From Alloascoidea hylecoeti (taxonomy: Eukaryota): a stretch of DNA of 64,000 nucleotides. Positions 9,198 through 28,400 of the stretch are shown here, one piece after another (position 1 is the first letter of the stretch; each line of letters starts with the position of its first letter). The translations under genes were made by a program, and so were the position numbers. The stretch spans positions 496,001 through 560,000 of the forward strand of contig BCKZ01000004.1 of assembly GCA_001600815.1 (NCBI GenBank), written 5' to 3'. The notes beneath the pieces are model-generated. The model saw only the letters and a program-made list of their open reading frames with translations. It made no database searches and was not told where the DNA came from.

Positions 9198-12100
9198 ATG
9201 TCTACTAATAGTACTGAAGTTTTAAATCAATTGTTCTCAAAGCTTTCTATAGCCAAGGAACAAACTGAAAGAGATGAGAGTGCTGTTGCTCTTGCTGCTT
9301 ACTTAAATGGTTCAAATATAATTGATCATGATATACCCTCTGGTTTTTTCTCTCAATTAAAGGCTAACCTTACTCAAAAGAAGGACGCCAACTTAAAGAT
9401 TAATTCTCTTGCCGCAGTCTCTCACATTGCTAATGTTAACTTATTACCAAGTATTGAGCCATACGTGGTTGAATTGATTGAAGACATTTTGGCCGCCAGC
9501 TCTGACAAAAATGCTGATGTCAAAACTCACGCAAAATCCGCTGCTGTTGCAATTGCTGCCAGCATTACTCCAGTCGCCGTTAAAGCTCTTTTACCAAAAA
9601 TCTTAAACGTTTTGAAAAACACCTCAAAATGGCCTGAGAAGATTGCCAGTTTGAGTGCCGTTAGTACTTTGGTTGACGTTGCTCCAGAACAAATTGCCTT
9701 AAGAATGACTGAATTAATCCCAACTTTATCTGAAGCTATGTGGGATACAAAATCTGAAGTTAAAAAAGCTGCTACTGCCACCTTAACTAAATGTACTGAA
9801 ACTATTCATAACAAAGATATTGAAAAGTTTTTACCTGATTTAATTAAATGTATTTCAAAACCAACTTTAGTTCCAACAACTGTTCATACTTTAGGTGCTA
9901 CAACATTTGTTTCTGATGTTACTATTGGTACTATGTCTATTATGGTTCCTTTATTGTCTCGTGGTTTGAATGAACGTGATACTGCAATCAAGAGAAAAGC
10001 TGCTGTCATTATTGATAACATGTGTCGTTTGGTTGAAGATCCTCAAATCGTTGCTCCATTTTTAAGTAACTTATATCCTGCTTTATTAGAAAATCATGCT
10101 AATATTGCTGATCCAGAAGCTCGTGATGTTACTTTACGTGCTATCACCACCGTTAAACGTGTTGCTGATATCAAAGAAGATAACAAAATTCCTGAAGTTT
10201 CAACTGCTGGTGATACCGCTGTTACATTAAAGGAATTGAAAACGTTATTGAAATCAAACGTTGCTGACAAATTCACCGTTGTTTTAGAATATGCTGCCGC
10301 TATTGCTGGTGGTTTGATTGATGCTAAATCAATTGATTCTGAACCATGGTTTATTAACTTGGCTCCATTTTTAACTATCTTTTTACATGAAGCTGAAGCC
10401 AAAGAAATTGTTGAAGCATGGAGATCAAAAGCTATCTTGAACATTCCTGAAGGTCCTAAAGTTGATGATGAAGAAGATGATGAAGGTGAAGATTTATGTA
10501 ACTGTCCTCTTCAATTAGCTTATGGTGCTAAGATTTTGTTAAACAATACTCATTTAAGATTAAAGAGAGGTAGAAGATATGGTTTATGTGGTGCCAATGG
10601 TTCTGGTAAATCAACTTTAATGAGATCTTTAGCAAATGGTCAATTAGAAGGTTTCCCAACTCAAGAAGAATGTCGTACTGTTTATGTTGAACATGATATC
10701 GATGGAACTCATGCCGATACTCCTGTTTATGAATTCGTTTTGGATGATTTAGAAGGTTCAACAAAAGAAATTGTTGAAGCTAAATTAATTGAATTTGGTT
10801 TCAGTGATGAAATGATTCATAATCCAATTCAATCATTATCTGGTGGTTGGAAGATGAAATTAGCTTTAGCTAGAGCTGTATTGAAAAATGCTGATATTTT
10901 ATTATTAGATGAACCAACAAATCATTTAGATACTGTTAATGTATCATGGTTAGTTGATTACTTAACTACATGTGGTATTACTTCTATCATCGTTTCTCAC
11001 GATTCTGGTTTCTTGGATAGAACTGTTGAATTCATTTTACATTATGAATTATTTAAATTAAGAAAATATAAAGGAAACTTATCTGAATTTGTTAAAAAAC
11101 ATCCAGCTGCTAAATCTTATTATGAATTAGGTGCTTCTGATTTAGAATTTCAATTCCCATCCCCAGGTTTCTTGGAAGGTGTTAAAACAAAACAAAAAGC
11201 AATTGTTAAAGTTAATAATATGTCTTTTACATATCCTGGTTGTGCAAAACCACAAATTAGAGATATTAATTTCCAATGTTCTTTATCTTCAAGAATTGCC
11301 GTTATTGGTCCAAATGGTGCTGGTAAATCTACATTAATTAATGTTTTAACTGGTGAATTATTACCAACTGAAGGTGATGTTTATGTCCATGAAAATTGTC
11401 GTATTGCTTATATTAAACAACACGCTTTTGCTCATATTGATAATCATTTAGAAAAGACACCATCTGATTATATTCAATGGCGTTTCCAAACTGGTGAAGA
11501 TCGTGAAACTATGGATAGAGCTTCAAGACAAATTAATGAAGCTGATGCTGAAAATATGAATAAAATTTTCAAAATTGAAGGTACACCAAGACGTGTTGTT
11601 GGTATTCATTCAAGAAGAAAGTTCAAGAACTCTTATGAATATGAATGTTCTTTTGCTTTAGGTGAAAATGTTGGTCAAAAGAATGAACGTTGGATTCCAA
11701 TGATGTCTGTTGATAATGCTTGGTTACCACGTGGTGAATTGATTGAAACTCATGCTAAGATGGTTGCTGAAGTTGATATGAAGGAAGCTTTAGCTTCTGG
11801 TCAATTTAGACCTTTAACAAGAAAAGAAATTGAAGCTCATTGTGCCATGTTAGGTTTAGATGCTGAATTAGTTTCCCATTCTCATATTAAAGGTTTATCT
11901 GGTGGTCAAAAAGTTAAATTGGTTTTAGCTGCTTGTACTTGGCAAAGACCTCATTTAATTGTTCTTGATGAACCTACAAATTATTTGGATAGAGATTCAT
12001 TAGGTGCTCTTTCAAAAGCTTTGAAAGCATTTGAAGGTGGTGTTATTATTATTACACATTCTGCTGAATTTACAAAAGGTTTAACTGAAGAAGTTTGGGC

Positions 12101-12344
12101 TGTTTTGGATGGTAGAATGACTCCTTCTGGTCATAACTGGGTTCAAGGTCAAGGTACTGGTCCAAGACTTTCTGGTAAAGATGATGATGAAGGAGATAAA
12201 TTTGATGCTATGGGTAATAAAATTGCTGGTAATAAAAAGAAGGCTAAACTTTCTTCTGCTGAATTGAGAAGAAAGAAGAAGGAGAGAATGAAGAAGAAGA
12301 AGTTACTTGGTGATGCTTATGTTTCATCTGATGATGAATTTTAA
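9198..12344 (+). CDS. YEF3: Translation elongation factor 3
   Basis: HEAT N-terminus, two ABC cassettes ([14 protein letters not shown] and [14 protein letters not shown]) with chromo insert, basic tail ending SSDDEF, strong codon bias. Confidence 0.97.
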
Positions 12345-12786
12345 GATAATCTCTAGTTAACAAAAAAAAAAAAAAAAAAAGGAAGCACAATTTTATTATT
12401 ACATTTTCTGTTTAACTTATATATTATTATTGATGATTTATAAGGCTTTTTTTTTTCTTTTTTAATTTTATCTCTATTTCCTTTGTTTTTATTTATCTTT
12501 TATCTATCTTATCTTATTTTTTGTATTGTCCATTTGATTTTTTATATATTTAATATGGTTATGAAAACACAATTGTGTGTTTTGGAATTAAATTAATTAT
12601 AGCTATAGATTAATATATAATCTAACGTTTATTAAATAATTCAAATTCATGTGTGTTGAGTCACTGCTGACATTTTATTGTAGACATTCAGGTTTACCTC
12701 CGTTCTTCATTAACTGAAATTCTTTCTTCTTTAACACCTGAATTCAGTCGTTATTTTTCATTTATAACTGTTGAACTTTTTAAATA

Positions 12787-13789
12787 ATGACATTAGATAA
12801 ACCTGTTCCAAAAGCTATTGTTTTCACCGATTGGGATGGAACCGTTACGTTACAAGTATGTGCAAAAAATGAAAATAATGACGTAAACGTTATCGAGATG
12901 GGATTATTCATTTTAAGAATGCTTCCAACAAGGGGCAAAAATAAACGATCGACGATATAAATTTTATATACTAAATATCAAATACTAATACTCATTTTTT
13001 ATCATTATAGGATAGTAATGATTATCTTACTGATCATTTAGGATTTGGTGAAAAGGAAAGAAAATCAATTGGTCAAGATATTTTAGATTTGAAAACATCA
13101 TTTAGGTAATTATAACCATCATAACAATATACTACTGGATTAACAATGATTATAGAGATGGATTTCAAGTAATGCTTAATTCTATTGATACTCCTTTTGA
13201 TGAATGTATCGAATATTTGGTGAAACGTATGTATTATATAATTATAATATGTTAACTTTTGATTTATCCGACTAATTAATAATGATTTTTAGATATCAAA
13301 CTTGATCCTGGTTTCAAAGAATTTTATCAATGGACAAAAGATAACAATATTCCATTATTAGTTATATCTAGTGGTATGAAACCTATTATTACAGCATTAT
13401 TGGCAAATTTCCTTGGAGAAGATGCTGTTAAAGATATTACGATTGTTTCAAATGATGTTGTTATTAGAGATGATAAAACATGGGATATTGTATATCGAGA
13501 TGAATCATCATTTGGACATGATAAATCTCGCTCTATTAAACCATATGCTGATGAATTTTTACCAGAAAAGCCGATTCTTTTTTATTGTGGAGATGGTGTT
13601 TCTGATTTAAGCGCAGCAAGAGAAACTGATTTATTATTTGCTAAAGAAGGAAGAGATTTGATTACTTATTGTGAAAGAGAAAAAGTTCCATATCATCAAT
13701 TCTCATCATTTAAAGATATTTTAGAAGAAGTAAAAAGTATTTTAGATGAGAGGAAGACCTTGCAAGAAAGTATTGAAAATAATATTTAA
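12787..13789 (+). CDS. HAD-family phosphatase (YNL010W/Pyp1-like); introns 12856-13010, 13106-13155, 13227-13292
   Basis: Spliced MTLDKPVPKAIVFTDWDGTVTLQ|DSNDYLTDHLGFG..SFR|DGF..LVKH|IKLDPGFKEFY..VISSGM..GHDKS..YCGDGVSDLSAA, covering HAD motifs I-IV. Confidence 0.85.
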
Positions 13790-15942: not shown

Positions 15943-17121
15943 ATGAGTGATAAGTCCAAATCAAAGATCGTTGGTGAATTTATTGATTCTTCAACGAATC
16001 ATAAAACGGATCATGAAAAGGATCATGGAATAAATGGTGAAGATTCGCTTCTAGCTGCAGATTTCACTGATGATCAATATAATTCAGCTATTACTATATC
16101 TTTACTGGTGCTATTGTCTGGAATGACTTGGTATAGTATATATTCAATTCTGGGGCAATTAATTTTGATATTAATACTTTTATTTACTCAGATGGTAATC
16201 ATATTTTGGGGAATCATATGGTATAGTATAAACAACAAAGGAAATATAAAAGAATTAAAAGATTACAATAATACTAGATTAAAATCAAAAATTGGAAAGA
16301 AATTTAAATTCGTTCAAAATTCAAATAATTGGAATATTGAATTAAATAATTTTAAAAATGAAAATGAATATGATAATTTACCAACTTTCCCTCAATCTTT
16401 TATAATTTCTGATACTTTAGATCAAATATTTGATAGTATTATAAAAGATTTTGTTAATTCTTGGTATAATAAAATTTCTGGAGATAGTAATGATATACGT
16501 TTTACAAATCAAATTAAAGAATCATTAAGAGGAACAATAGTGAATCTTCAAGAAAGATTATCATCAATAGATATTTCTGAACTTGTTGTTTATAAATTAA
16601 TACCAATCATGCAACAACATTTTGAAGATTTTTTAGAATCTGAAAAAAAAGTACGTGAAAGATCAAGAATTAGAAAAATTTCAGATTCAAATGAATTAGA
16701 ATTATCAATTGCATTAAATTTTAAAAGAAGAAATTTACATAAATCAGTTAATTTGAAATCAATTAATCAAGAATTAAATCGTAAAAAATGGGCAAGTAAG
16801 AAATTTTCAAAAATTATACCATTATTAATACCTAAACAAGATTCCGAATTATCGTTAACAAATATTTTTACATTGGAAATTTTATCTTGTACAATTATTA
16901 ATCCTATTATTTCAATTATTACTGATCCTGATTTTTGGAATCAACAAATTATAAAAATTGCTGGAAATACATTAAGAGATAGAGCACAAGTTAAAAAATT
17001 AAGATCATTATTAGTTCAACATGCAAAATTAGACGGTAAAGTTTTAAATTTTGAATCAAAACAAAACAACATTGATAAAAATAATCATGTTAACGTTAAC
17101 AACAACAACAACAACAACAAC

Positions 17122-17153
<32 letters not shown>

Positions 17154-20100
17154 TGACAATAATGATGATATTTCTTCAACAATTATACCACCAACAAATA
17201 ATTTAATAACACTGGATAAATTATTTTTAAATTTATTAAAACAACAAACAAATTCAAAAAGTTTATCATCTGAAATATTTAATCAAATAAATTATGAAAT
17301 TGAAAAATGTTCAACAGTCGTTGAAGCAAATCAAGCACATTATTATATTTCATCACATTTAAAAAAAAAATTAAAAGAATTTAAAGAAACTGGTAGTCCA
17401 GGTAGTGATACAACTTATCTTTTTCAATTACAAAAATTAAAACAAATTTTAGAATTAAAAATTAAAAAACTTAATAATTTACAATTATTTAGTAGTGATG
17501 AAGAAGATGATATTTATGAAGAAGATGAAGAAGACTCAAGTATTAAATCGGGCACAAAGAAATCTAATATTAAAAATAATAATAGTAAAAGGAAATCTAA
17601 AACTAAATATAAAATAAAAAATAAAAAAAATCGTATTGCAACGCATAAAGAATCAATATCAAAAATCATTGTTGAACATGATCCAAGAGAAGATGCCACA
17701 ATAATAGATATTCTTGGTAATCCAAAATCTTTATCATTTTTTAAACAATTTATGGATGAAGATCCAATACGATCAATAACACTTCAATATTGGCTAAGAG
17801 TTAATAAGATTAAAGATCCTTTAGAAGATGCAACAAGAGATGATTATGAAGAAGAACTATTATCACACAGTATTGATATGTCTGCTGATTCAGATGAATT
17901 GGTTAAAATTTATTATGATTTTTTTGATAATGAAATAAATTCAGATTATTTACAAATTTTAAATGATTTAAAAGAGAAAATTAATCCATTTATAATCAAT
18001 TGCATTAATACAACTAATAATAATAATAAATCAAAAATCAATTATACATCATATATACTTGCGAGGAAAACAATCTTAGTATTGCAATCAAGTATATTTA
18101 ATAAAATGAAAATTAAATATTTACCAGAATTTAAAAAATCGGATCATTTTTTAAAATATTTAGCTTTGGAATATCATGAATCAACGTATGGAAATCAAAG
18201 ACAAAAAGGTGTTGATGATTTACAAATTGATTCAATTGGAGAATCAAATGATCTAGATATTGAATTACAAAAATCAATGGCAATTCCACCTTTATTTGAT
18301 GAATTATGGGTTGATAATGAAACCGTGAATGAGGATGAAATGGAAAATGGGAAAGTAATATCAAAAACTGATAATTTAGAAGAAGCATTGAATGAAATTC
18401 TATATAATGATTTAAATAATCTTGACTTAGCTCGTTCAAATTCAACTGAAAGTACTAGTGCAGTACAATCATCACCTCCTTCAAGACTTATGAGTCCAAT
18501 CAGTGATGTATTCAAGCATGGAAGATCACCATCAGGAATATCATTAAGTAGTCTTAAAGCACAATCAAAGACATCAATTGCTACCAATGATGATTTATTT
18601 GGAATGAGTAGTCCAGCAACATCTCTTAAGAACAATAAATTACCATTTGATGATATAACTAGTACTACAAAATCTTCAACACGATTATTTTATAGTGACG
18701 ATGAATCAGAAAATGATATTGATAATAATGAATTGATTATAGGAAACAATAACAATAATCCTAATAATGATGATGATGAAAATTCAGATATTTCAGAAAA
18801 TATTGATGCTGAATTTGAACCACAAGCTCATTTGGCAGCACCAGGAGATTTAGGATTATCAGAAAAGATTCAAAAATTATCATCAGAAATTGAAAATTTA
18901 TATTCTCAAGTTTCTGTTTTAACACCTTTATTAAGTAAAGCAGAATTAACAAATAATTTAGCACAACTAAGAATTTTAAAAAAATCTAAACTTTCATTAC
19001 AAAGAGAAATTCAATCAAAAGAATTACAAAAACAACAATATATTTTACAAGAAAATGAAAATAGCTTATATGGGAAATCAAAAGTTAGAATTCAATCAAA
19101 TGTTAGAGCACAAGATAATAATAATGATAAAGGTTTTTATATTCTTTATATAATTGAAGTTCAAAAAATTGGAATAGATGGTTCAGTTGTTGCAGGATGG
19201 GTTGTTGCAAGACGTTATTCACAATTTTTTAAATTACATCATCATTTATCAAGAATTTATCCAAAAGTTAGACAATTATCATTACCTAAAAAAAATGTAT
19301 CAGTTTTAAAATTTCAAAAAAATTTAATTGATTCAAGACAAAAAGGATTAGAAAAATATTTACAAGATTTATTGACAATGAAAGATGTTTGTCAATCAAG
19401 AGCATTTCGTTATTTTTTATCTTCTGAAACATTTTCAATGAATGGATTTGATGATAAAGGAGGGAAAGATTTAGCTTCAAAATTGGTAAGTGGTATAGCA
19501 GAAGGAGTTGAAGATTTATTAGGACATCAAATTACAAATTGGAAATTACCAATTCAAAATTTAAGAACATCGAGAAGCAGCTCTACAACTAATTCCAAAA
19601 TTGAATCGGATATTAGTACAACAACCCCTGATGGGTATTCATTATCAACCCAATTTTTAGATCTTGAAAAAGAACTAAGTAGTTTTGATCAAGATCAAAC
19701 AAGTTCAACACAAAGACCTCCATTTGTTAAACCAATTTGTGATTTATTTATGGTTGTTTTTGGATTAAACCGAGGAAATGGTGGTTGGATACGTGGAAGA
19801 GCGGTACTTGTTGTTTTACAACAATTATTAGGATCAACAATTGAAAGAAAATTAAGAGAACAATTTAATATACTATACGATAAGATTCATATAATGAATT
19901 TACTTGAAACTTTACAAGATTCTTTATGGCCAATGAATAAATTAGGAGAACGACAATTTCTCAAAAGATCTGAACCAAGAACACAAATTGAAAAATCTAA
20001 ATGTAAACATGAAGCAAAATTAATTTTTATAACATTAATGAATGAATATTGTTCAAAAATTGTTGGTGGTAATAATTCAAGATACGCTTCAACTAAAATG

Positions 20101-20196
20101 TTTTCAATGTTACAAAATTCAATCCTCAATCATCAATTGATTTATGAAATATTAGAAGAAACTTTAGATGAAATATTTCCTGAAATTTCAACATAA
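15943..20196 (+). CDS. MDM1: PXA-RGS-PX-PXC sorting nexin (Mdm1/Snx13 family)
   Basis: Two N-terminal TMs; PXA (IIKDFVNSWY); RGS-like segment (DILGNPKSLSFFKQFM..LQYW); PX (VARRYSQF); Nexin_C (WIRGRA..VVLQQLLG.TIE). Confidence 0.85.
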
Positions 20197-21282: not shown

Positions 21283-22348
21283 TATATCAATATTGATTGT
21301 ATTAATTAAGTTACTGGTAATTTAGAGTTGGAAGACTTCGATGATATCCAGGTTATTTATACTGGCATCATAACAATGATAAAATAAGGATGCTGGCTCC
21401 CGTGAAATGTAATTACATGTATTAATCAATCTATTACTTTTGATATTGGTATTGATGTTTAATAATTTGAAAATTTAAAGTGTGGTTGGCAGATTGACGT
21501 ACACCAAAACTGAGACCAGCCCTGTATTTCTGCTCCCCTGGACTCCCCTAGGTTGCAAGCTATTCCCCAGGTAATTATACCCAGCCGTTAGAATTATAAC
21601 GTTATCACTTCTAAGTTCTTACTAACAATTAGAAATATAATTATATAGGGCCTATATGGTATTCATGATCACATCTTGGGAGCACTTATATATTGTTTAG
21701 TTTCCATTCGTTCTTGAAATTTCAACTTGTTACGCATAACCTTTTAATTATATGATTATGATATCTGAACATTAATAACAAGAAAATACTGGGGGTGACA
21801 GGTGTGCTGGCAGGTTCATGTATTTCTTCAAGGCGCCGACTTTACGTCTTTTGTTGATGTTTGTGTATCTGAAACACCAACAACATCTTATAATAATATA
21901 ATGGTAGGCAATTCTATCCTTAATATATTAAATAGTAATCTCATGATGATTTAAACTGCTTTTGATTTATTATCAAAAAGGTTATCCAGATTTCTATTGC
22001 AATTGTTCTTTGGTAACTATTTGTCTTGCAGCATTTATTTAGTATTCAGCGCTCCATTATTATTATGCACACTAATTATATCGTTATTTTCGCGAATTAT
22101 TTCTCTTCAAGCAGCTAAGAATTAGCGTTCTTTTACGACGAAGGATATTTAAAAATTCACCAGTCATTGATCCCCACAAGTGACGATTTATAAACTGTAC
22201 TTCTGATAATGATTAAATAAACTATATGAACTAATACAAGATAACTTTATACATGTTTTTTGTGTATATGGGGTATTTTCTCTCTAGATCTATGCATTAT
22301 ATCATTTAAATTTTTGTAGAAAACATCTAGTGATAACAATCACAATTC

Positions 22349-24429
22349 TTATACTTTATAACTTTGATGTATGGTTTTTCTTCCACGTCTTGTAACGGTA
22401 GGGAATTTCGGTTCCTCGACTTTTGCCGTTGCTTCAACCCAATTCACGTATCTTGGAGCTCTCTTTTCACTTTTCTTTTTTGGAGGCAAGTAGTCATCCA
22501 TATCCGCATCATCATCTGTAGATGATAAATCATTAATTTCATTTATAAACGTTTTCTCATGTCCAATAGTTTTATTATTATACTCATGTTCTATACCATT
22601 AGAAGAGGGAGAAGAACGAGCTCTTTTTGAATGTGAAGCTTTATTATTATACCTATGTTCTAAACCATTAGAAAAGGAATAACAAGATCTTTTTGATGAT
22701 GAATGCAAAGTTTTCTTTACGGAATGCCCTTTCTTCGATCTATTTTGATTTGCTAAAATATATTCATAAACACTTTTTCTTATTTTTGGAGCGAAATCCT
22801 CCAACTTAGGGCCTTTTTCTATATTTTTAATTACACCAAATGAATTAGCAGTTTTTAAATCAATTTTTTCTTTTTTTGTTTTTGGCCACCAAGTCTCATA
22901 TAATCTAGCATGTCTGAAACATCTTGAACAATATCTGCTAACTTTAACTTGGTCTGAAGGGAAATAAACACCACAATTACCACATTCGTATAAATGACAT
23001 TTCTCGGTATCACTGTATGTTTGAATTTTAGTGAAACTATCTAGGATTCGAACTTTTCGTTTCTCAAACATTGAATCTGATTCACGATTACCATGTTTTG
23101 GAATTGTACCTAAAATACCCCAGATACTATTATCCTTATCTATAAATGCTCTAAGTGAAAGACTGAAATTCATTGGAGTTGTTTCTCTTCTTCGTCTTAA
23201 TTGCCTTTCACCATTTGATGATTCTGAATTAAATGAGGGTGAAGATACTGAATCATGAATATCATATTTTATTTTTATATCCCGTTCGACAGGTTTCAAA
23301 TTTGTATCTGAATTCAAATAATCTAGAGATTTTGAAGGTTGTTGTTTAAAATAATTTGACTCTTTTAGAGCAGAGTATTCATGATCTCCTGCACTAATAA
23401 TTTCAGGTGTTAGGTAACTATTAATAGTAATATTAATATTTTCTTTTTCATTTGAACTTTCTCGTTCTAATTTTGATCGTTCTCTTTTATTTCTTATTTT
23501 GTTGTAATAAACTTTCATTATGTTGTCTAATTCTTCAAATCTATCATCTGGTATTTCCTCTGTTGGTTTATTCAAATCCATTGCTTCATAATATGATCTT
23601 GGTGCAAATGCTCCTTTATGTTCTCTTTCACAAGTTAAGCATAAACATTCTCTATTATCTTTACCAAAATAATCATCACCATACATAACAGTTATTTCTT
23701 CACCAATGTTAATGTTTCTTGTTGCTATAAGTGACATTCGAAGGCCACCTACACCTGCTGTTGAAAATCTGCAATTTGCATTACAATCATGGTTAACAAA
23801 TCTTGCTGGACCTAACATTAAACACTCTTTACTTCTTGATGTAACCACAATTGAAAAATCTCTACCCCTTTCCCAGACGCCTTTTTCATCAGGTTGTATT
23901 GGAATCATAGAACCAATTAACTTTTCGATTTTCTCACCTTCTGTATATTCCTTTCTTGCTATAACACATGCTTCAACACGGCCGGATTTACTTATGTAAC
24001 GATCTGTTGTATCAATTTCAAATCCAACTTTTTCATCGTATATATTGGCATATAATCTAACATGATTATCGAATTCTTTCGATGATTCTTTATTTGTGAT
24101 GTATCGATTAGTGAAATTAATAACAGGTGGTAACATCATAAATTCATCAACAAAGGAAGCAACTTTGGTGTGGATGGTAACCTTAGATCTATTGTAGTGT
24201 ATCAATTCTTCTTTAATTAATGCTGTTATTTGATGAGATGTTATCTCCAGAATTTTTGGCTGAGGTTGAATTTTACGAATTTCTGACCAGTAGTATACCT
24301 AGATATTCCATTATTAGTTATAGAGATAATTTTATTTTATCAGAAAAAAAACATGGTTACCTTATCGATTAAAAGATTTGTTATGAAATCATCCATGATA
24401 GATATATCATAGGTTCCTAAGCATGCCAT
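22349..24429 (-). CDS. SET9: Set9/Suv4-20-family histone H4K20 methyltransferase, copy A; intron 24360-24299
   Basis: MACLGTYDISIMDDFITNLLIDK|VYYWSEIRK; RDFSI, LGPARFVNHDC, EEITVMYG.DYFG.DN.ECLCLTCE; downstream CxxC..CxRCxRH.RLY..WP. Confidence 0.88.
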
Positions 24430-24875
24430 TTGAAGGTATTGTTATATCCGAGAACGCGAAAATAATTTGAAGTATGGTACTTCTTTTCAAAAATAAAAGG
24501 ATAAACAATTTAAAAAAGCCAGGAATAAGAAAGATCCGAATGAAGGAAGCCAGTAACTAAATGAATACAAATATCGATCTCTAAATTTATATTTCAAATT
24601 TTATATTTCATTAACTAAATATTGTTTTCTGTGTTTAAATAATATAACTTTTCTTCCCCTTGACATTTAAATTACCCCTTTTTAAAACAAATGAGTGTTT
24701 CCTTTTAAAATCACTGATTATAAAAGGGTATAGACATGGATGTTATTTTTTTCTAAAGAGAATATTCTTGTTTTTACGCGTTGTTTATCTTTGACATGGC
24801 AGGGTAACGGTAATATTAGCACAAAAACAAAAATCTATCATTAAAAAAGAAATTTTTAAAAATCTATAGCTACAA

Positions 24876-27705
24876 TTAATCTAGCACAACAATGTCTTTT
24901 GAGGAATTATCAGGCTTTTTTTGCGTAGGCCTGTCATTAATATTAATAGGGTTCTTCTGTGAATGTTTTAAGAATGGTTTGTTCGTTAACATTGGTTGCC
25001 TCTTAGCAAAATATTTTGGAGTTTTAATTCTAACGTAACCGGTTTTAGCCTTTCTAATTGGCATGACAGGATCTGATTTAAATTTTTTGTTTGGTTCAGA
25101 TTTGGATTTAGTTTCTGTTTTTGGTTTCGTAGATTTAATTGAAGAAAGGTGTATCTCGGGTAAGTCACGATCAGATTTAATTCTGGGTCTCAGTTTATTC
25201 GATATTATACGGGTCTCTGCCGGAGATAGAGTAATAATCTCTTCTTCTTTTTCATCTAAATGGTTAATATGAATATATTCATTATGAAAATTGTCCGGTT
25301 CTTCGGAACTAGATATTACAAATTCCTCTGGACTGGCAATTGATTCATCTGAACTTTCAACATCAGCATGTTCAACCACCGATCCATAATCATAACCTCT
25401 TCTTATAACCCGTGTTCCAATTATCGATAACTCCTCATCAGAGGTATCACTATCATCATCGAGGCCAATTACTTCTTGGACAGGATTTTGTATTATTTCC
25501 AAACTTCTTTTTTGAGCTGAAGTTGGCTTTGATATAACGCTAATATCATCATCTTCGATGATATTAATATTTCGTTTGGGTATAACCTCTTCTAGATCTG
25601 TATCAGAAGAAGAATCTAAAAATATTGCTGTCTTTTCTTTATTATTACCAATCATTTTCTTGAATTCCATACTGTGATCTTTCACGAATAANGCTTTGTG
25701 CTTGAGTGCATCATCACTTTCACTTTTACGTTCACTTTCACTACTTTCCGACTGTTGTAAATGTATTGATGATTCCAACAATGGTGCGGGATCAGAAATT
25801 AAAGACATTAATAATTCTCTCCTTGGATCAACCTTTTCTGAAGATTTATTTCTCCATTCTGATTGTTGGATGAATGGTGTTATAAGGTCACTTTCCAACG
25901 ATGTATTTATATCCTTCGAGTTGAGTATATTGTCGTCATCTTCTTCATCATCATCATCATCATCATCATATTTTTCTTCCTCGCGTTCATCATCAGTATC
26001 CTCACCGGTATAAGTATCATCATCACCCAATAATTTGAAAGAAATCGCCTTTTTCAATTCATTTAAGCTTGAATCATGTTCATTATCATCGTCGCTCATA
26101 ATCTCTGGATCACTATCATATGTGTTAAATTTCTCTTTAATTTTCTTTTTATAATTGGTTTCGATATCTTCAATCTGTGAATTCGGTTCTGCAGAGATAC
26201 GATTCATAACCCCCATCTGTCTTTGGACTAATCGTGGATCACTTGGTGTTTTTTTCTTATAGGAGACATTGAACACTTTATTTACAGGTATTTCCGTTTT
26301 GTAAGTATCAGATCCATAGACATTCATAAGCATATGTTCTGCTGGGAATCTCTCTCTCTCAACCTCCTTTTCTTGAACGTTTAATCGATAAATTGGTTTA
26401 AATATTTTACTAATAGGAGATACTTCTTTACCACCCTTTTTAATTGTGGTAGCCGGCCACATAAAATCATATAATTTAACATGTCGTAGGCACCTTTCAC
26501 AAATTCTACTAATTCCAGTTATTTCAGCTTCTATAATTAATGCAAAATATTGACCACAATTTTCACATTCATATAACTGATTTTTTGGTATTGTAAATAT
26601 TTTAGTATTATGGTAACTATCAAGAATTCTGTAAACTCTTTTTTTAAAATCACTTGGCATTTCTTCTTCTCCCGGTTTTGGTTCTCGACCTACGACGTCC
26701 CAAGTAGTCTGATATTTTCCAAGTTTTGAGGAAGAAGCTTTATTTTTTCTGGTCCGTAATAAACGTTGTGGTATCGATTCTTCATCTGATACTTCTTCAT
26801 CTTTAAATGGGTTGCTGATTTTTTCATTTGCATTAGAATCGTCTGACTCTGAATCTGTATCACTTGCATCTTTAGTTTCATCATCATCACGATATGATTG
26901 GGGAACATGTCCTCCTTTACCTTCAAGTTCACAGTATAAACAAAGACATTCTCTGTTATGTTTTCCAAAATAGTTTGGCGCATAAAATATAGTTATTTCC
27001 TCGCCGACTTGAATAGGTTGCTCTGCTATTAAAGCCAAAGTATTATAACTTGTAGAAACTAATCTTGCGTTACAACGACATGAATGATTTACTAATCTTA
27101 ATGGACCTAATAACAAACATTCTTGTTGTGTTCTTGTTGTTTCTATAATAGAAAAATCTCTTTTCAAATGTTGGTATTCATCAGCATCTTTTGGATCTAA
27201 AGGTGTTAATATTGCAGTTAAATATTTTATAATTTCACCTTGTTTTATAGATTTTCTTGCGATAACACATGATTCTGATCTACCAGATCTCCTTATATAT
27301 CGATCTGTAGTAGATATTTCAAATTTTGTATCTTTTAAATAAATTTGACAATATTTACTCGCATGTCTTTCAAATTCATGTATTAATTGCCGATTGCCAT
27401 GTGTATTCTTTTCAACAAATCGTCTAACTCGTTTTAGATTCATAAATACTTCGATGAAGGCTTTGATAGATGGTTTTTGACTCTTAATTAAATAATACTT
27501 GATTAGGGGAACAATATCGGATATTGGAAATTTTCTTGATAGTTCATTGGTTTGGATTTTTCTCACCACATCCCAATAATATACCTAATAATATGTTAGA
27601 GTGGAAATTTCTTTTATTTGGTGAGAGAATACATACACTGTCAATGAAAACATTAGTTAAGAAATCATCATAAGCTGATATGTTTTTATGAGTTAAGCAT
27701 GTCAT
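24876..27705 (-). CDS. SET9: Set9-like methyltransferase, copy B (longer acidic tail); intron 27636-27585; one ambiguous base at 25692
   Basis: MTCLTHKNISAYDDFLTNVFIDS|VYYWDVVRK; RDFSI, LGPLRLVNHSC, EEITIFY..NYFG..NRECLCLYCE; same second Cys cluster as copy A. Confidence 0.85.
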
Positions 27706-28400
27706 TTATATCTAAAAAGCTTCAATTTTCACCTTCAAACTTCAAAGCGTAAAACAAAACAAAAAGATCAGAAATAAAAAATCCAGAAAGAAGCAGTGTT
27801 CAAAATATCAATAAAGTAGATAGTTTGGTATATTTAAAAGTTTATCCTTGTTGATGATATCGCTATAAATGTTTTTTGATCAGAGATTTTTGAATGATAC
27901 TATAAATATTGATGCTTTTTGGTTCCCTTCTAGCTTAGAATTTCCTCTTCTTCACTGATATAAATTAACTGTCCCAACTAAAATACATAAGAGATCATAA
28001 GTCCAAGTTTCGTGGTTGTTTAATTTGATGAAGTGAATCTGAAGAAATTACATTTGATATACGCTGGGTGTGTGGGTGTATGATTCTTCCACTTAATTTA
28101 GGCCACATATTCTCGTTTGATGAAAATCTTCAACTAAATATATATACATGTTTTTCTAAAGTCAGGAAAAGATTTATTCACAGCTATGAAATGTCTTCCA
28201 TAGAAACAGCTAAAAGTGAATTAAACCAAATAGTCACCGATAAGAATGATTTGATAGATCTTTGGTTTATATACAAGAATTACCATGGCTGAATAGTCAA
28301 ACAACCTAAATTAAGTAGAATCACTGTATAAACATTAATTTATTCATTCCTAAAAACCATGTAATTTCTAAAGTTTATGCAAATTGTATATTAAATAAAA

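Follow-up and report, generated by a model that had tools for sequence, protein, structure and literature searches.

An old tandem duplication in the Set9/KMT5 methyltransferase family, probably with two functional copies, in the budding yeast Alloascoidea hylecoeti

Why would a budding yeast hold, side by side, two genes for a histone methyltransferase that Saccharomyces cerevisiae does without? The question is raised by a 64,000-nucleotide stretch of the Alloascoidea hylecoeti genome (GenBank assembly GCA_001600815.1, contig BCKZ01000004.1, positions 496,001 to 560,000 of the forward strand), here called the window, whose minus strand carries at 27705..22349 two genes in the same orientation, copy B being the upstream and copy A the downstream gene. 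An earlier note on this DNA, made from its letters alone, had read them as a diverged pair of Set9 methyltransferases acting on lysine 20 of histone H4 (H4K20). We conclude that A and B are probably two functional paralogues that stem from an old tandem duplication within the Set9/KMT5 family of H4K20 methyltransferases. In the accessible excerpts of the sources, to which all citations here refer, Schizosaccharomyces pombe uses one Set9 for mono-, di- and trimethylation (H4K20me1/2/3), animals use PR-Set7 together with Suv4-20 (PMC3874154; PMC10553808) and S. cerevisiae is listed without Set9 (PMC2474616), in agreement with the background given in the earlier note.

Two adjacent genes of one family

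Profile, sequence and fold comparisons show both genes to be predicted SET methyltransferases of the Set9/KMT5 (Suv4-20) family, as had been proposed. The Pfam SET profile (PF00856) matches copy A with 41.3 bits (E 2.3e-10) and copy B with 47.6 bits (E 2.5e-12), the cut-off being 22.4. When all PDB sequences were searched with HMMER, the closest solved relatives of both copies were KMT5B/SUV420H1 and KMT5C/SUV420H2, with KMT5B as the best match in each case (E 3.3e-30 for A, 2.3e-22 for B). All 10 PDB chains matching copy B at E <= 1e-10 are SUV420H1 or SUV420H2, with no SETD8 chain among them. An AlphaFold2 model covering residues 1-400 of copy B, built on a 100-row alignment, has a mean predicted local distance difference test score (pLDDT) of 75.5 and a predicted TM-score (pTM) of 0.73, and its catalytic part lies mostly above a pLDDT of 85. 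Foldseek ranks 1-16 for this model are all SUV420H1/2 (best SUV420H1, E 2.1e-18, target-normalised TM-score 0.72). Membership in the PR-Set7/SET8 (KMT5A) group was rejected on the same comparisons, since SETD8 first appears at rank 23 (E ~5e-7, target-normalised TM-score ~0.5) and is absent at E 1e-10 by sequence. A look-up in a protein atlas returned generic SET and SUV420H1 clusters only.

The two genes and their predicted parts are laid out as follows.

27705..24876, minus strand: copy B, whole gene, 925 aa when spliced
27637..27705, minus strand: copy B exon 1, 23 codons, MTCLTHKNISAYDDFLTNVFIDS, matching the family N-terminal motif
27585..27636, minus strand: copy B intron, 52 nt, phase 0, GTATGT ... 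TCTAAC ... AG
24876..27584, minus strand: copy B exon 2, 902 aa plus stop codon, from the list of open reading frames (P0002)
26982..27269, minus strand: copy B SET domain, exon-2 residues 106-201, derived motif RLVNHSC
26454..26567, minus strand: copy B C-terminal Cys cluster, CENCG...CERCLRH...LY..WP, exon-2 residues 340-377
24430..24875, minus strand: spacer of 446 bp from the B stop codon to the A ATG, presumed B terminator and A promoter
24429..22349, minus strand: copy A, whole gene, 672 aa when spliced
24361..24429, minus strand: copy A exon 1, 23 codons, MACLGTYDISIMDDFITNLLIDK, read from the sequence and carrying the family N-terminal motif
24299..24360, minus strand: copy A intron, 62 nt, phase 0, AAG/GTAACC ... 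ACTAAT ... AG (slash, exon-intron junction), with a non-consensus 5' splice site
22349..24298, minus strand: copy A exon 2, 649 aa plus stop codon, from the list of open reading frames (P0001)
23678..23968, minus strand: copy A SET domain, exon-2 residues 111-207, canonical motif RFVNHDC
22883..22984, minus strand: copy A C-terminal Cys cluster, CGNCG...CSRCFRH...LY..WWP, exon-2 residues 439-472
25692, no strand assigned: the single N in the window, within a GCN codon of copy B

Position 27705 is the A of the copy B ATG and position 22349 the final base of the copy A stop codon. These coordinates fit exactly the description of two adjacent same-strand genes with a 23-codon exon 1 and a phase-0 intron before VYYW, the motif that opens exon 2 in both copies. 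Joined across the introns, the N-termini read ..(F/Y/M)DD.(L/I)T..(L/F)ID(K/S) followed directly by VYYW, and relatives have ..FDD.L...L.D..YYW unbroken; because the spliced N-termini recreate this family motif, the predicted splice models gain support. The intron of copy B was also recovered by a pattern scan, and the ACTAAT branch-like motif of the A intron is found together with GTATGT elsewhere in the window. A strict search of the window for GTATGT...TACTAAC introns gave no match, and a looser one for introns near the N-terminus gave too much noise for a 5' splice-site consensus to be drawn. Since intron position and phase are common to A and B, the pair is best read as the product of a duplication at the DNA level that took place after the intron existed; retroposition was considered as the mode of duplication and excluded on the same grounds.

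The tandem layout is genuine and not an assembly artefact. A single Logan contig from run X1 spans 22200-27900 with 0 differences, and contigs from X2 (22200-25926) and X4 (24099-26864) bridge the spacer between A and B, again with 0 differences. X1 and X2 are possibly the source of the window DNA, and X4 is another sample of the same organism. An artefact of assembly or haplotype is ruled out by these bridging contigs together with the 43% identity between A and B. Both reading frames are open, as had been claimed, and the sole N falls in a codon that specifies Ala whichever base it stands for. The SET domain, the post-SET zinc motif and the second Cys cluster that had been noticed in both proteins were recovered as PF00856 matches and as invariant Cys columns.

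S. pombe Set9 (NP_588078; P0110) has the architecture of both predicted proteins: a helical region at the N-terminus, a SET domain containing the DFS serine, the NHDC motif, the post-SET CxCxxC and the C-terminal CxxC...CxxC.RH...WP. Whereas the window encodes two such proteins, 672 and 925 aa long and each with an extended low-complexity tail, S. pombe has a single copy of 441 aa, and this protein falls outside the Saccharomycotina clade in the tree described below.

Divergence, relatives and age of the duplication

The strong divergence and unequal tail length reported for the pair are borne out by direct comparison, and the similarity that is left lies well above chance. BLASTP aligns the catalytic parts with 102/239 identities (43%, E 1e-53) and the region around the second Cys cluster with 47/131 identities (36%, E 8e-20); outside these two regions A and B do not align, and the tails of the 672 aa and 925 aa proteins are unlike. 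Similarity at the DNA level is confined to short coding blocks (for example 72 nt at 76%, spacing 3301). No similarity is left between the non-coding DNA of the two genes, and none was seen when the spacer at 24430..24875 was compared with the region upstream of B. Synonymous sites between A and B are saturated: by the NG86 (Nei-Gojobori) method, synonymous divergence (dS) is 1.76 over 253 codons of the catalytic part, 1.21 in the SET core and 1.44 in the Cys cluster, and is undefined in the N-terminal part. Nonsynonymous divergence (dN) by the same method is 0.45-0.65 in conserved blocks.

Constraint was gauged against 38 other Set9 proteins. Copy A keeps all 41 of the columns that are at least 90% identical among them and copy B 38 of the 41; at the 70% level the counts are 65/76 for A and 60/76 for B, and at the 50% level 89/125 and 81/125. 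Tajima relative-rate tests with 8 outgroups count 23-27 changes unique to A and 25-35 unique to B (p 0.15-1.0, none significant), and thereby show the two predicted proteins to be changing at equal rates. Within the species, contigs from X1, X2, X4 and X5 have 0 differences at the locus, which leaves no polymorphism that could be counted for a selection test.

Relatives were collected in several ways. Of 509 candidates from a word-index search with A, 102 proteins passed E <= 1e-10, and even the strongest non-self matches were no more than 40-44% identical. The same kind of search with B yielded 3 matches from 2261 candidates, and one with a 12-row profile yielded 104 proteins. HMMER with residues 1-400 of B against 1.84 billion cluster representatives returned 1500 proteins at E <= 0.001, 306 of them at <= 1e-30; the best match is A's own open reading frame (226 bits, 43%) and the next reaches 199 bits at 34%. 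The open reading frame of B itself is in neither protein library, perhaps owing to the X that results from the N, so that its absence is uninformative. Named relatives come from Trichomonascus, Blastobotrys, Yarrowia, Myxozyma, Limtongia and Lipomyces, and cluster look-ups added S. pombe Set9, Saccharomycopsis crataegensis, Wickerhamomyces ciferrii and Lipomyces orientalis. According to NCBI taxonomy, the named budding-yeast relatives belong to the orders Lipomycetales, Dipodascales, Ascoideales and Phaffomycetales.

In a quick tree of 43 rows A and B were joined with an SH-aLRT support of 81. A more careful tree (40 rows, 319 columns) left out P0148, which had been flagged as long, as well as P0150 and P0160, with end branches of 1.44 and 1.49. 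It again placed A and B as sisters (96/86); their end branches measure 1.05 and 1.07 changes per column, and the stem 0.29. The pair lies inside a Saccharomycotina Set9 clade of 25 rows (support 98/95), which agrees with the earlier assignment of the host to the budding yeasts; the position of A and B within this clade is not settled between the Lipomycetaceae group and the group of Saccharomycopsis and Wickerhamomyces. The same clade holds Set9 proteins of Wickerhamomyces ciferrii (CCH45789; P0129), Saccharomycopsis crataegensis (GMM38780; P0259), Blastobotrys adeninivorans, Trichomonascus, Yarrowia and Lipomycetaceae. Those of Wickerhamomyces and Saccharomycopsis resemble copy B in their long tails (proteins of 849-1106 aa). 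Unlike the window, these other budding yeasts gave a single Set9 cluster per species in the searches, and none of their proteins exceeds 44% identity to either copy.

The duplication is old, as judged by a dS of 1.2-1.8 where defined, by a third-position identity of 0.42 between A and B and by two branches of about 1.05 against 0.29 for their stem. Both copies have been retained under constraint. The earlier description of an old, retained duplication accords with the saturated dS and with the 41/41 and 38/41 conserved columns.

Phylogeny and synteny had been named as checks on this history, and they answered unevenly: A and B came out as sisters, and the one relative available for a comparison of gene order, contig L001, which encodes the Saccharomycopsis-group protein P0007, has no neighbours in common with the window. 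Its flanking open reading frames have no Pfam match, and one of them was without similarity to the window neighbour. Set9 on L001 is one uninterrupted reading frame of 1103 codons (9929..13240), and its 13.6 kb contain neither an intron at the VYYW site nor a second Set9 core. Because this frame is unbroken, the VYYW intron is not common to the L001 lineage. A metagenome scan with copy B gave 129 pattern stretches, 0 of them confirmed. A profile scan gave 58 loci, 57 with a tblastn match to the Set9 core; a second core was found at 0/57, with only 24 of the 58 loci reaching at least 10 kb. These counts are weak evidence that tandem Set9 pairs may be rare.

Excerpts of two papers give the Suv4-20/Set9 group as absent from Saccharomycotina except Yarrowia (PMC2474616; PMC9692433), and those of a third describe Set9 as conserved in most studied species, except S. 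cerevisiae and two Aspergilli (PMC9676040). Judging from database entries, the printed statement that budding yeasts other than Yarrowia are without Set9 is outdated, because proteins named SET9 exist for Wickerhamomyces, Saccharomycopsis, Blastobotrys, Trichomonascus and Lipomycetaceae; the supplementary tables of the two surveys may list further yeasts. More than one gene of the family is likewise found in Paraphoma chrysanthemicola, with two copies in the Suv4-20 group, and in Rhizopus delemar, with three, but these fungi belong to other phyla or classes (PMC9692433, in the part available). Our literature search, which did not cover subscription journals, found no paper on a Set9 pair in a budding yeast.

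Active-site residues and competing explanations

Functional residues were mapped through HMMER alignments to the solved animal enzymes, collinearity of SUV420H1 and SUV420H2 between the serine and Phe191 being assumed, and the residue states were tallied against 98 other fungal family members. Roles are taken from excerpts of PMC3874154 and of bioRxiv 10.1101/2023.03.17.533220. In the former, Ser161 of Suv4-20h2 is shown to set product specificity and Phe191 is described as a residue of the pocket for the substrate methyl groups (PMC3874154). The DFS serine (Ser161 of Suv4-20h2, S251 of SUV420H1) is Ser in A, in B and in 98/98 others. The equivalent of Arg257 is Arg in both copies and in 87/98 others. 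The equivalent of Tyr217, the tyrosine of the lysine channel, is invariant, as are the four zinc Cys columns (NH.C and post-SET C.C..C), and all are present in A and B. At the position of Phe191, A has F and B has L; of the others, 60/98 have L and 38/98 have F. The arginine of the DNA loop (R286 of SUV420H1) was dropped as a candidate difference between A and B, the alignment of this loop being ambiguous.

Human KMT5B/SUV420H1 and KMT5C/SUV420H2 (PDB 3S8P, 4AU7, 7YRD, 8T9F) are thus like both copies at S251/S161 and at the Arg257 and Tyr217 equivalents, and they too are a paralogue pair with similar catalytic cores and different tails (PMC3874154, excerpts). Unlike the yeast proteins, to which they are 23-29% identical, they were compared as constructs without the fungal C-terminal Cys cluster; SUV420H1 E314 aligns with Lys in both window copies, and the animal pair arose independently.

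Several points weigh against reading A and B as two functional H4K20 methyltransferases from an old duplication. Transcription and splicing of both copies are predictions from the sequence. The 5' splice site of A, on which the earlier note had not remarked, is GTAACC, and the window's few credible introns begin with GTATGT or GTAAGT. A transcript of A that retained its intron would stop 9 codons into it. The literature searched yielded neither a functional study nor an H4K20 activity for any budding-yeast Set9. The ratio of dN to dS, which the earlier note had suggested as a check on both copies, comes to ~0.3, but this value rests on saturated dS, is not assignable to either branch and is a rough upper guide at best. 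In the tree, approximately unbiased (AU) tests reject neither a grouping of A with Saccharomycopsis/Wickerhamomyces to the exclusion of B (p 0.351, log-likelihood difference 2.88) nor the reverse grouping of B to the exclusion of A (p 0.209, log-likelihood difference 2.97), the groups having been chosen after the first tree was seen. Because these placements are not rejected, the duplication could predate the Saccharomycopsis/Wickerhamomyces split, with later losses elsewhere.

The remaining points concern copy B itself. It has Ala at a position that is Gly in 98/98 others, RL in place of RF (F in 97/98 others), and NHSC in place of NHDC (D in 93, N in 4, E in 1 and S in 0 of the 98 others). 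Copy A has the family residue at all three positions, and the departures of B cluster in the motif GP.RF.NHDC of the cofactor and active site. As three substitutions fall at invariant or near-invariant positions, the activity of copy B could be altered or weakened.

These residues bear on four other ways of reading the pair. It is doubtful that A and B form an independently evolved two-enzyme H4K20 system, in which A would be the ancestral-type enzyme and B, with an active-site motif that hardly any other member of the family has and a long acidic tail that it retained, would differ in product state, substrate preference or chromatin target. That the copies split the methylation states themselves, for instance as a mono-methylase and a di/tri-methylase in parallel with animal PR-Set7 and Suv4-20, is unlikely. 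The different residue at the Phe191 position, the derived NHSC, RL and Ala around the cofactor site of B and the long retention of both copies would all suit such a split, but the product-limiting Ser161 equivalent is Ser in both, and most of the other fungal members have L at the Phe191 position (60/98), which puts the F/L difference within normal variation. Moreover, a single Kmt5 enzyme makes all H4K20me states in fungi (PMC10553808, in its accessible part), and neither copy is like PR-Set7/SETD8, with SETD8 at rank 23 or beyond and E ~5e-7 against 2e-18 for SUV420H1.

Quite unlikely, in our view, is the decay of one copy, whereby A would be poorly spliced at its GTAACC site, or B would be catalytically impaired and, if surviving, would do so in a non-catalytic role. 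Besides the splice site of A and the three substitutions of B, the weaker match of B to KMT5B (2.3e-22, against 3.3e-30 for A) would fit decay, and non-catalytic roles have been described for SUV420H1 (bioRxiv 10.1101/2023.03.17.533220, as far as its excerpts go). Yet both long frames have stayed open despite saturated synonymous sites, the 23 codons of A exon 1 still encode the family motif in frame, and A and B keep their 41/41 and 38/41 conserved columns without asymmetry of rate. Across the exon-intron junction of A, AAG/GTAA agrees with the general U1 consensus over an unbroken run of six positions. Other active SET families usually carry NHSC, and its presence in B therefore need not mean that activity was lost. 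A move of copy B to a new substrate (a non-histone protein or another histone lysine), with A remaining the H4K20 enzyme, is very unlikely: the derived residues of B are concentrated in GP.RF.NHDC and its long acidic, Ser-rich tail has no counterpart in A, but B keeps those residues conserved in fungi that touch H4 in the solved complexes (the DFS Ser and the Arg257 and Tyr217 equivalents), and overall it has changed no faster or slower than A.

We hypothesize instead that an old tandem duplication at the DNA level gave rise to A and B in a lineage of budding yeasts that kept Set9 throughout, in contrast to Saccharomyces. Both enzymes would bind S-adenosylmethionine and methylate H4K20 on nucleosomes, like S. 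pombe Set9 and the Kmt5 of Pezizomycotina. Their retention may reflect a division of labour mainly outside the core chemistry, in which tails and linkers would govern targeting, partners or regulation, possibly with a catalytic nuance in copy B.

Tails, neighbourhood and implications

Taken together, the alignments show copy A as a predicted protein with the ancestral catalytic motif and a short tail, and copy B as one with a derived cofactor motif and the kind of long tail that its nearest named relatives have. Two further features lie in the tails.

22568-22616 and 22637-22685: tandem 69-nt (23-codon) repeat in the copy A tail, 84% identical, with SNG(L/I)EH.YNNK units
25430-25475: hydrophobic run and acidic/Ser stretch in the copy B tail, VIGLDDDSDTSDEE, aligning with Wickerhamomyces-group tails

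The C-terminal Cys cluster that precedes the tails is a hallmark of the whole fungal family and not special to the A/B pair. Its pattern C..C...C..C.RH...(L/I)(Y/F)...WP does not vary across 12 aligned Saccharomycotina rows, with every residue kept in A and B. Among 260 family proteins that had been collected and were 300 aa or longer, a regular-expression scan found the cluster in 239, in addition to both copies; the carriers include S. pombe Set9 (P0110, position 365), Aspergillus, a zoopagomycete, a chytrid and a basidiomycete. The cluster has no Pfam match, and no described function was found for it. In the model of copy B, the means of pLDDT in blocks over residues 331-380 are 58-89, a moderate confidence. 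From its sequence, the cluster looks like an unannotated zinc-binding module.

Beyond the cluster both proteins end in low-complexity tails that are poorly alignable. In the tails of B and of the Wickerhamomyces group (P0129, P0126, P0127, P0132), a hydrophobic run leads into an acidic/Ser stretch. A has no such element and is also the shortest of the group (672 aa, against 800-1106 aa). The VIGLDDDSDTSDEE stretch in the B tail may resemble a SUMO-interaction motif.

The locus, with a G+C content of ~0.30, lies in an AT-rich window of densely packed genes and long uninterrupted reading frames. Its neighbours in the window are ordinary yeast genes, encoding a mannosyltransferase, a PXA-PX sorting nexin, a Ser/Thr-rich protein of secreted type, an NSF/Sec18-type AAA ATPase and a PRKCSH-domain protein. 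The PXA-PX-nexin_C protein beside the locus (15943-20196) contains a run of at least 20 Asn, and long poly-Asn tracts seem to be typical of this AT-rich genome. CTG is very rare, making up 24 of the 1132 Leu-box codons in the 18 window reading frames of at least 150 aa, with 0 in the long reading frame of copy A and 1 in that of copy B. As the nearest named Set9 relatives include Ascoideales, CTG decoding in the host yeast may be non-standard, with a consequence of at most one residue per Set9 gene.

Set9 thus persists in several budding-yeast orders, and one lineage has long kept two diverged copies, an unusual Set9 copy number for a fungus. Were A and B redundant, the pair would amount to an ordinary gene duplication. 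If they differ in product, target or regulation, they would provide a compact natural experiment on how H4K20 writers share their work, and would give access to the study of H4K20 methylation among budding yeasts. A two-enzyme system, if true, would parallel the animal division of labour at H4K20 in a simple and tractable fungus.

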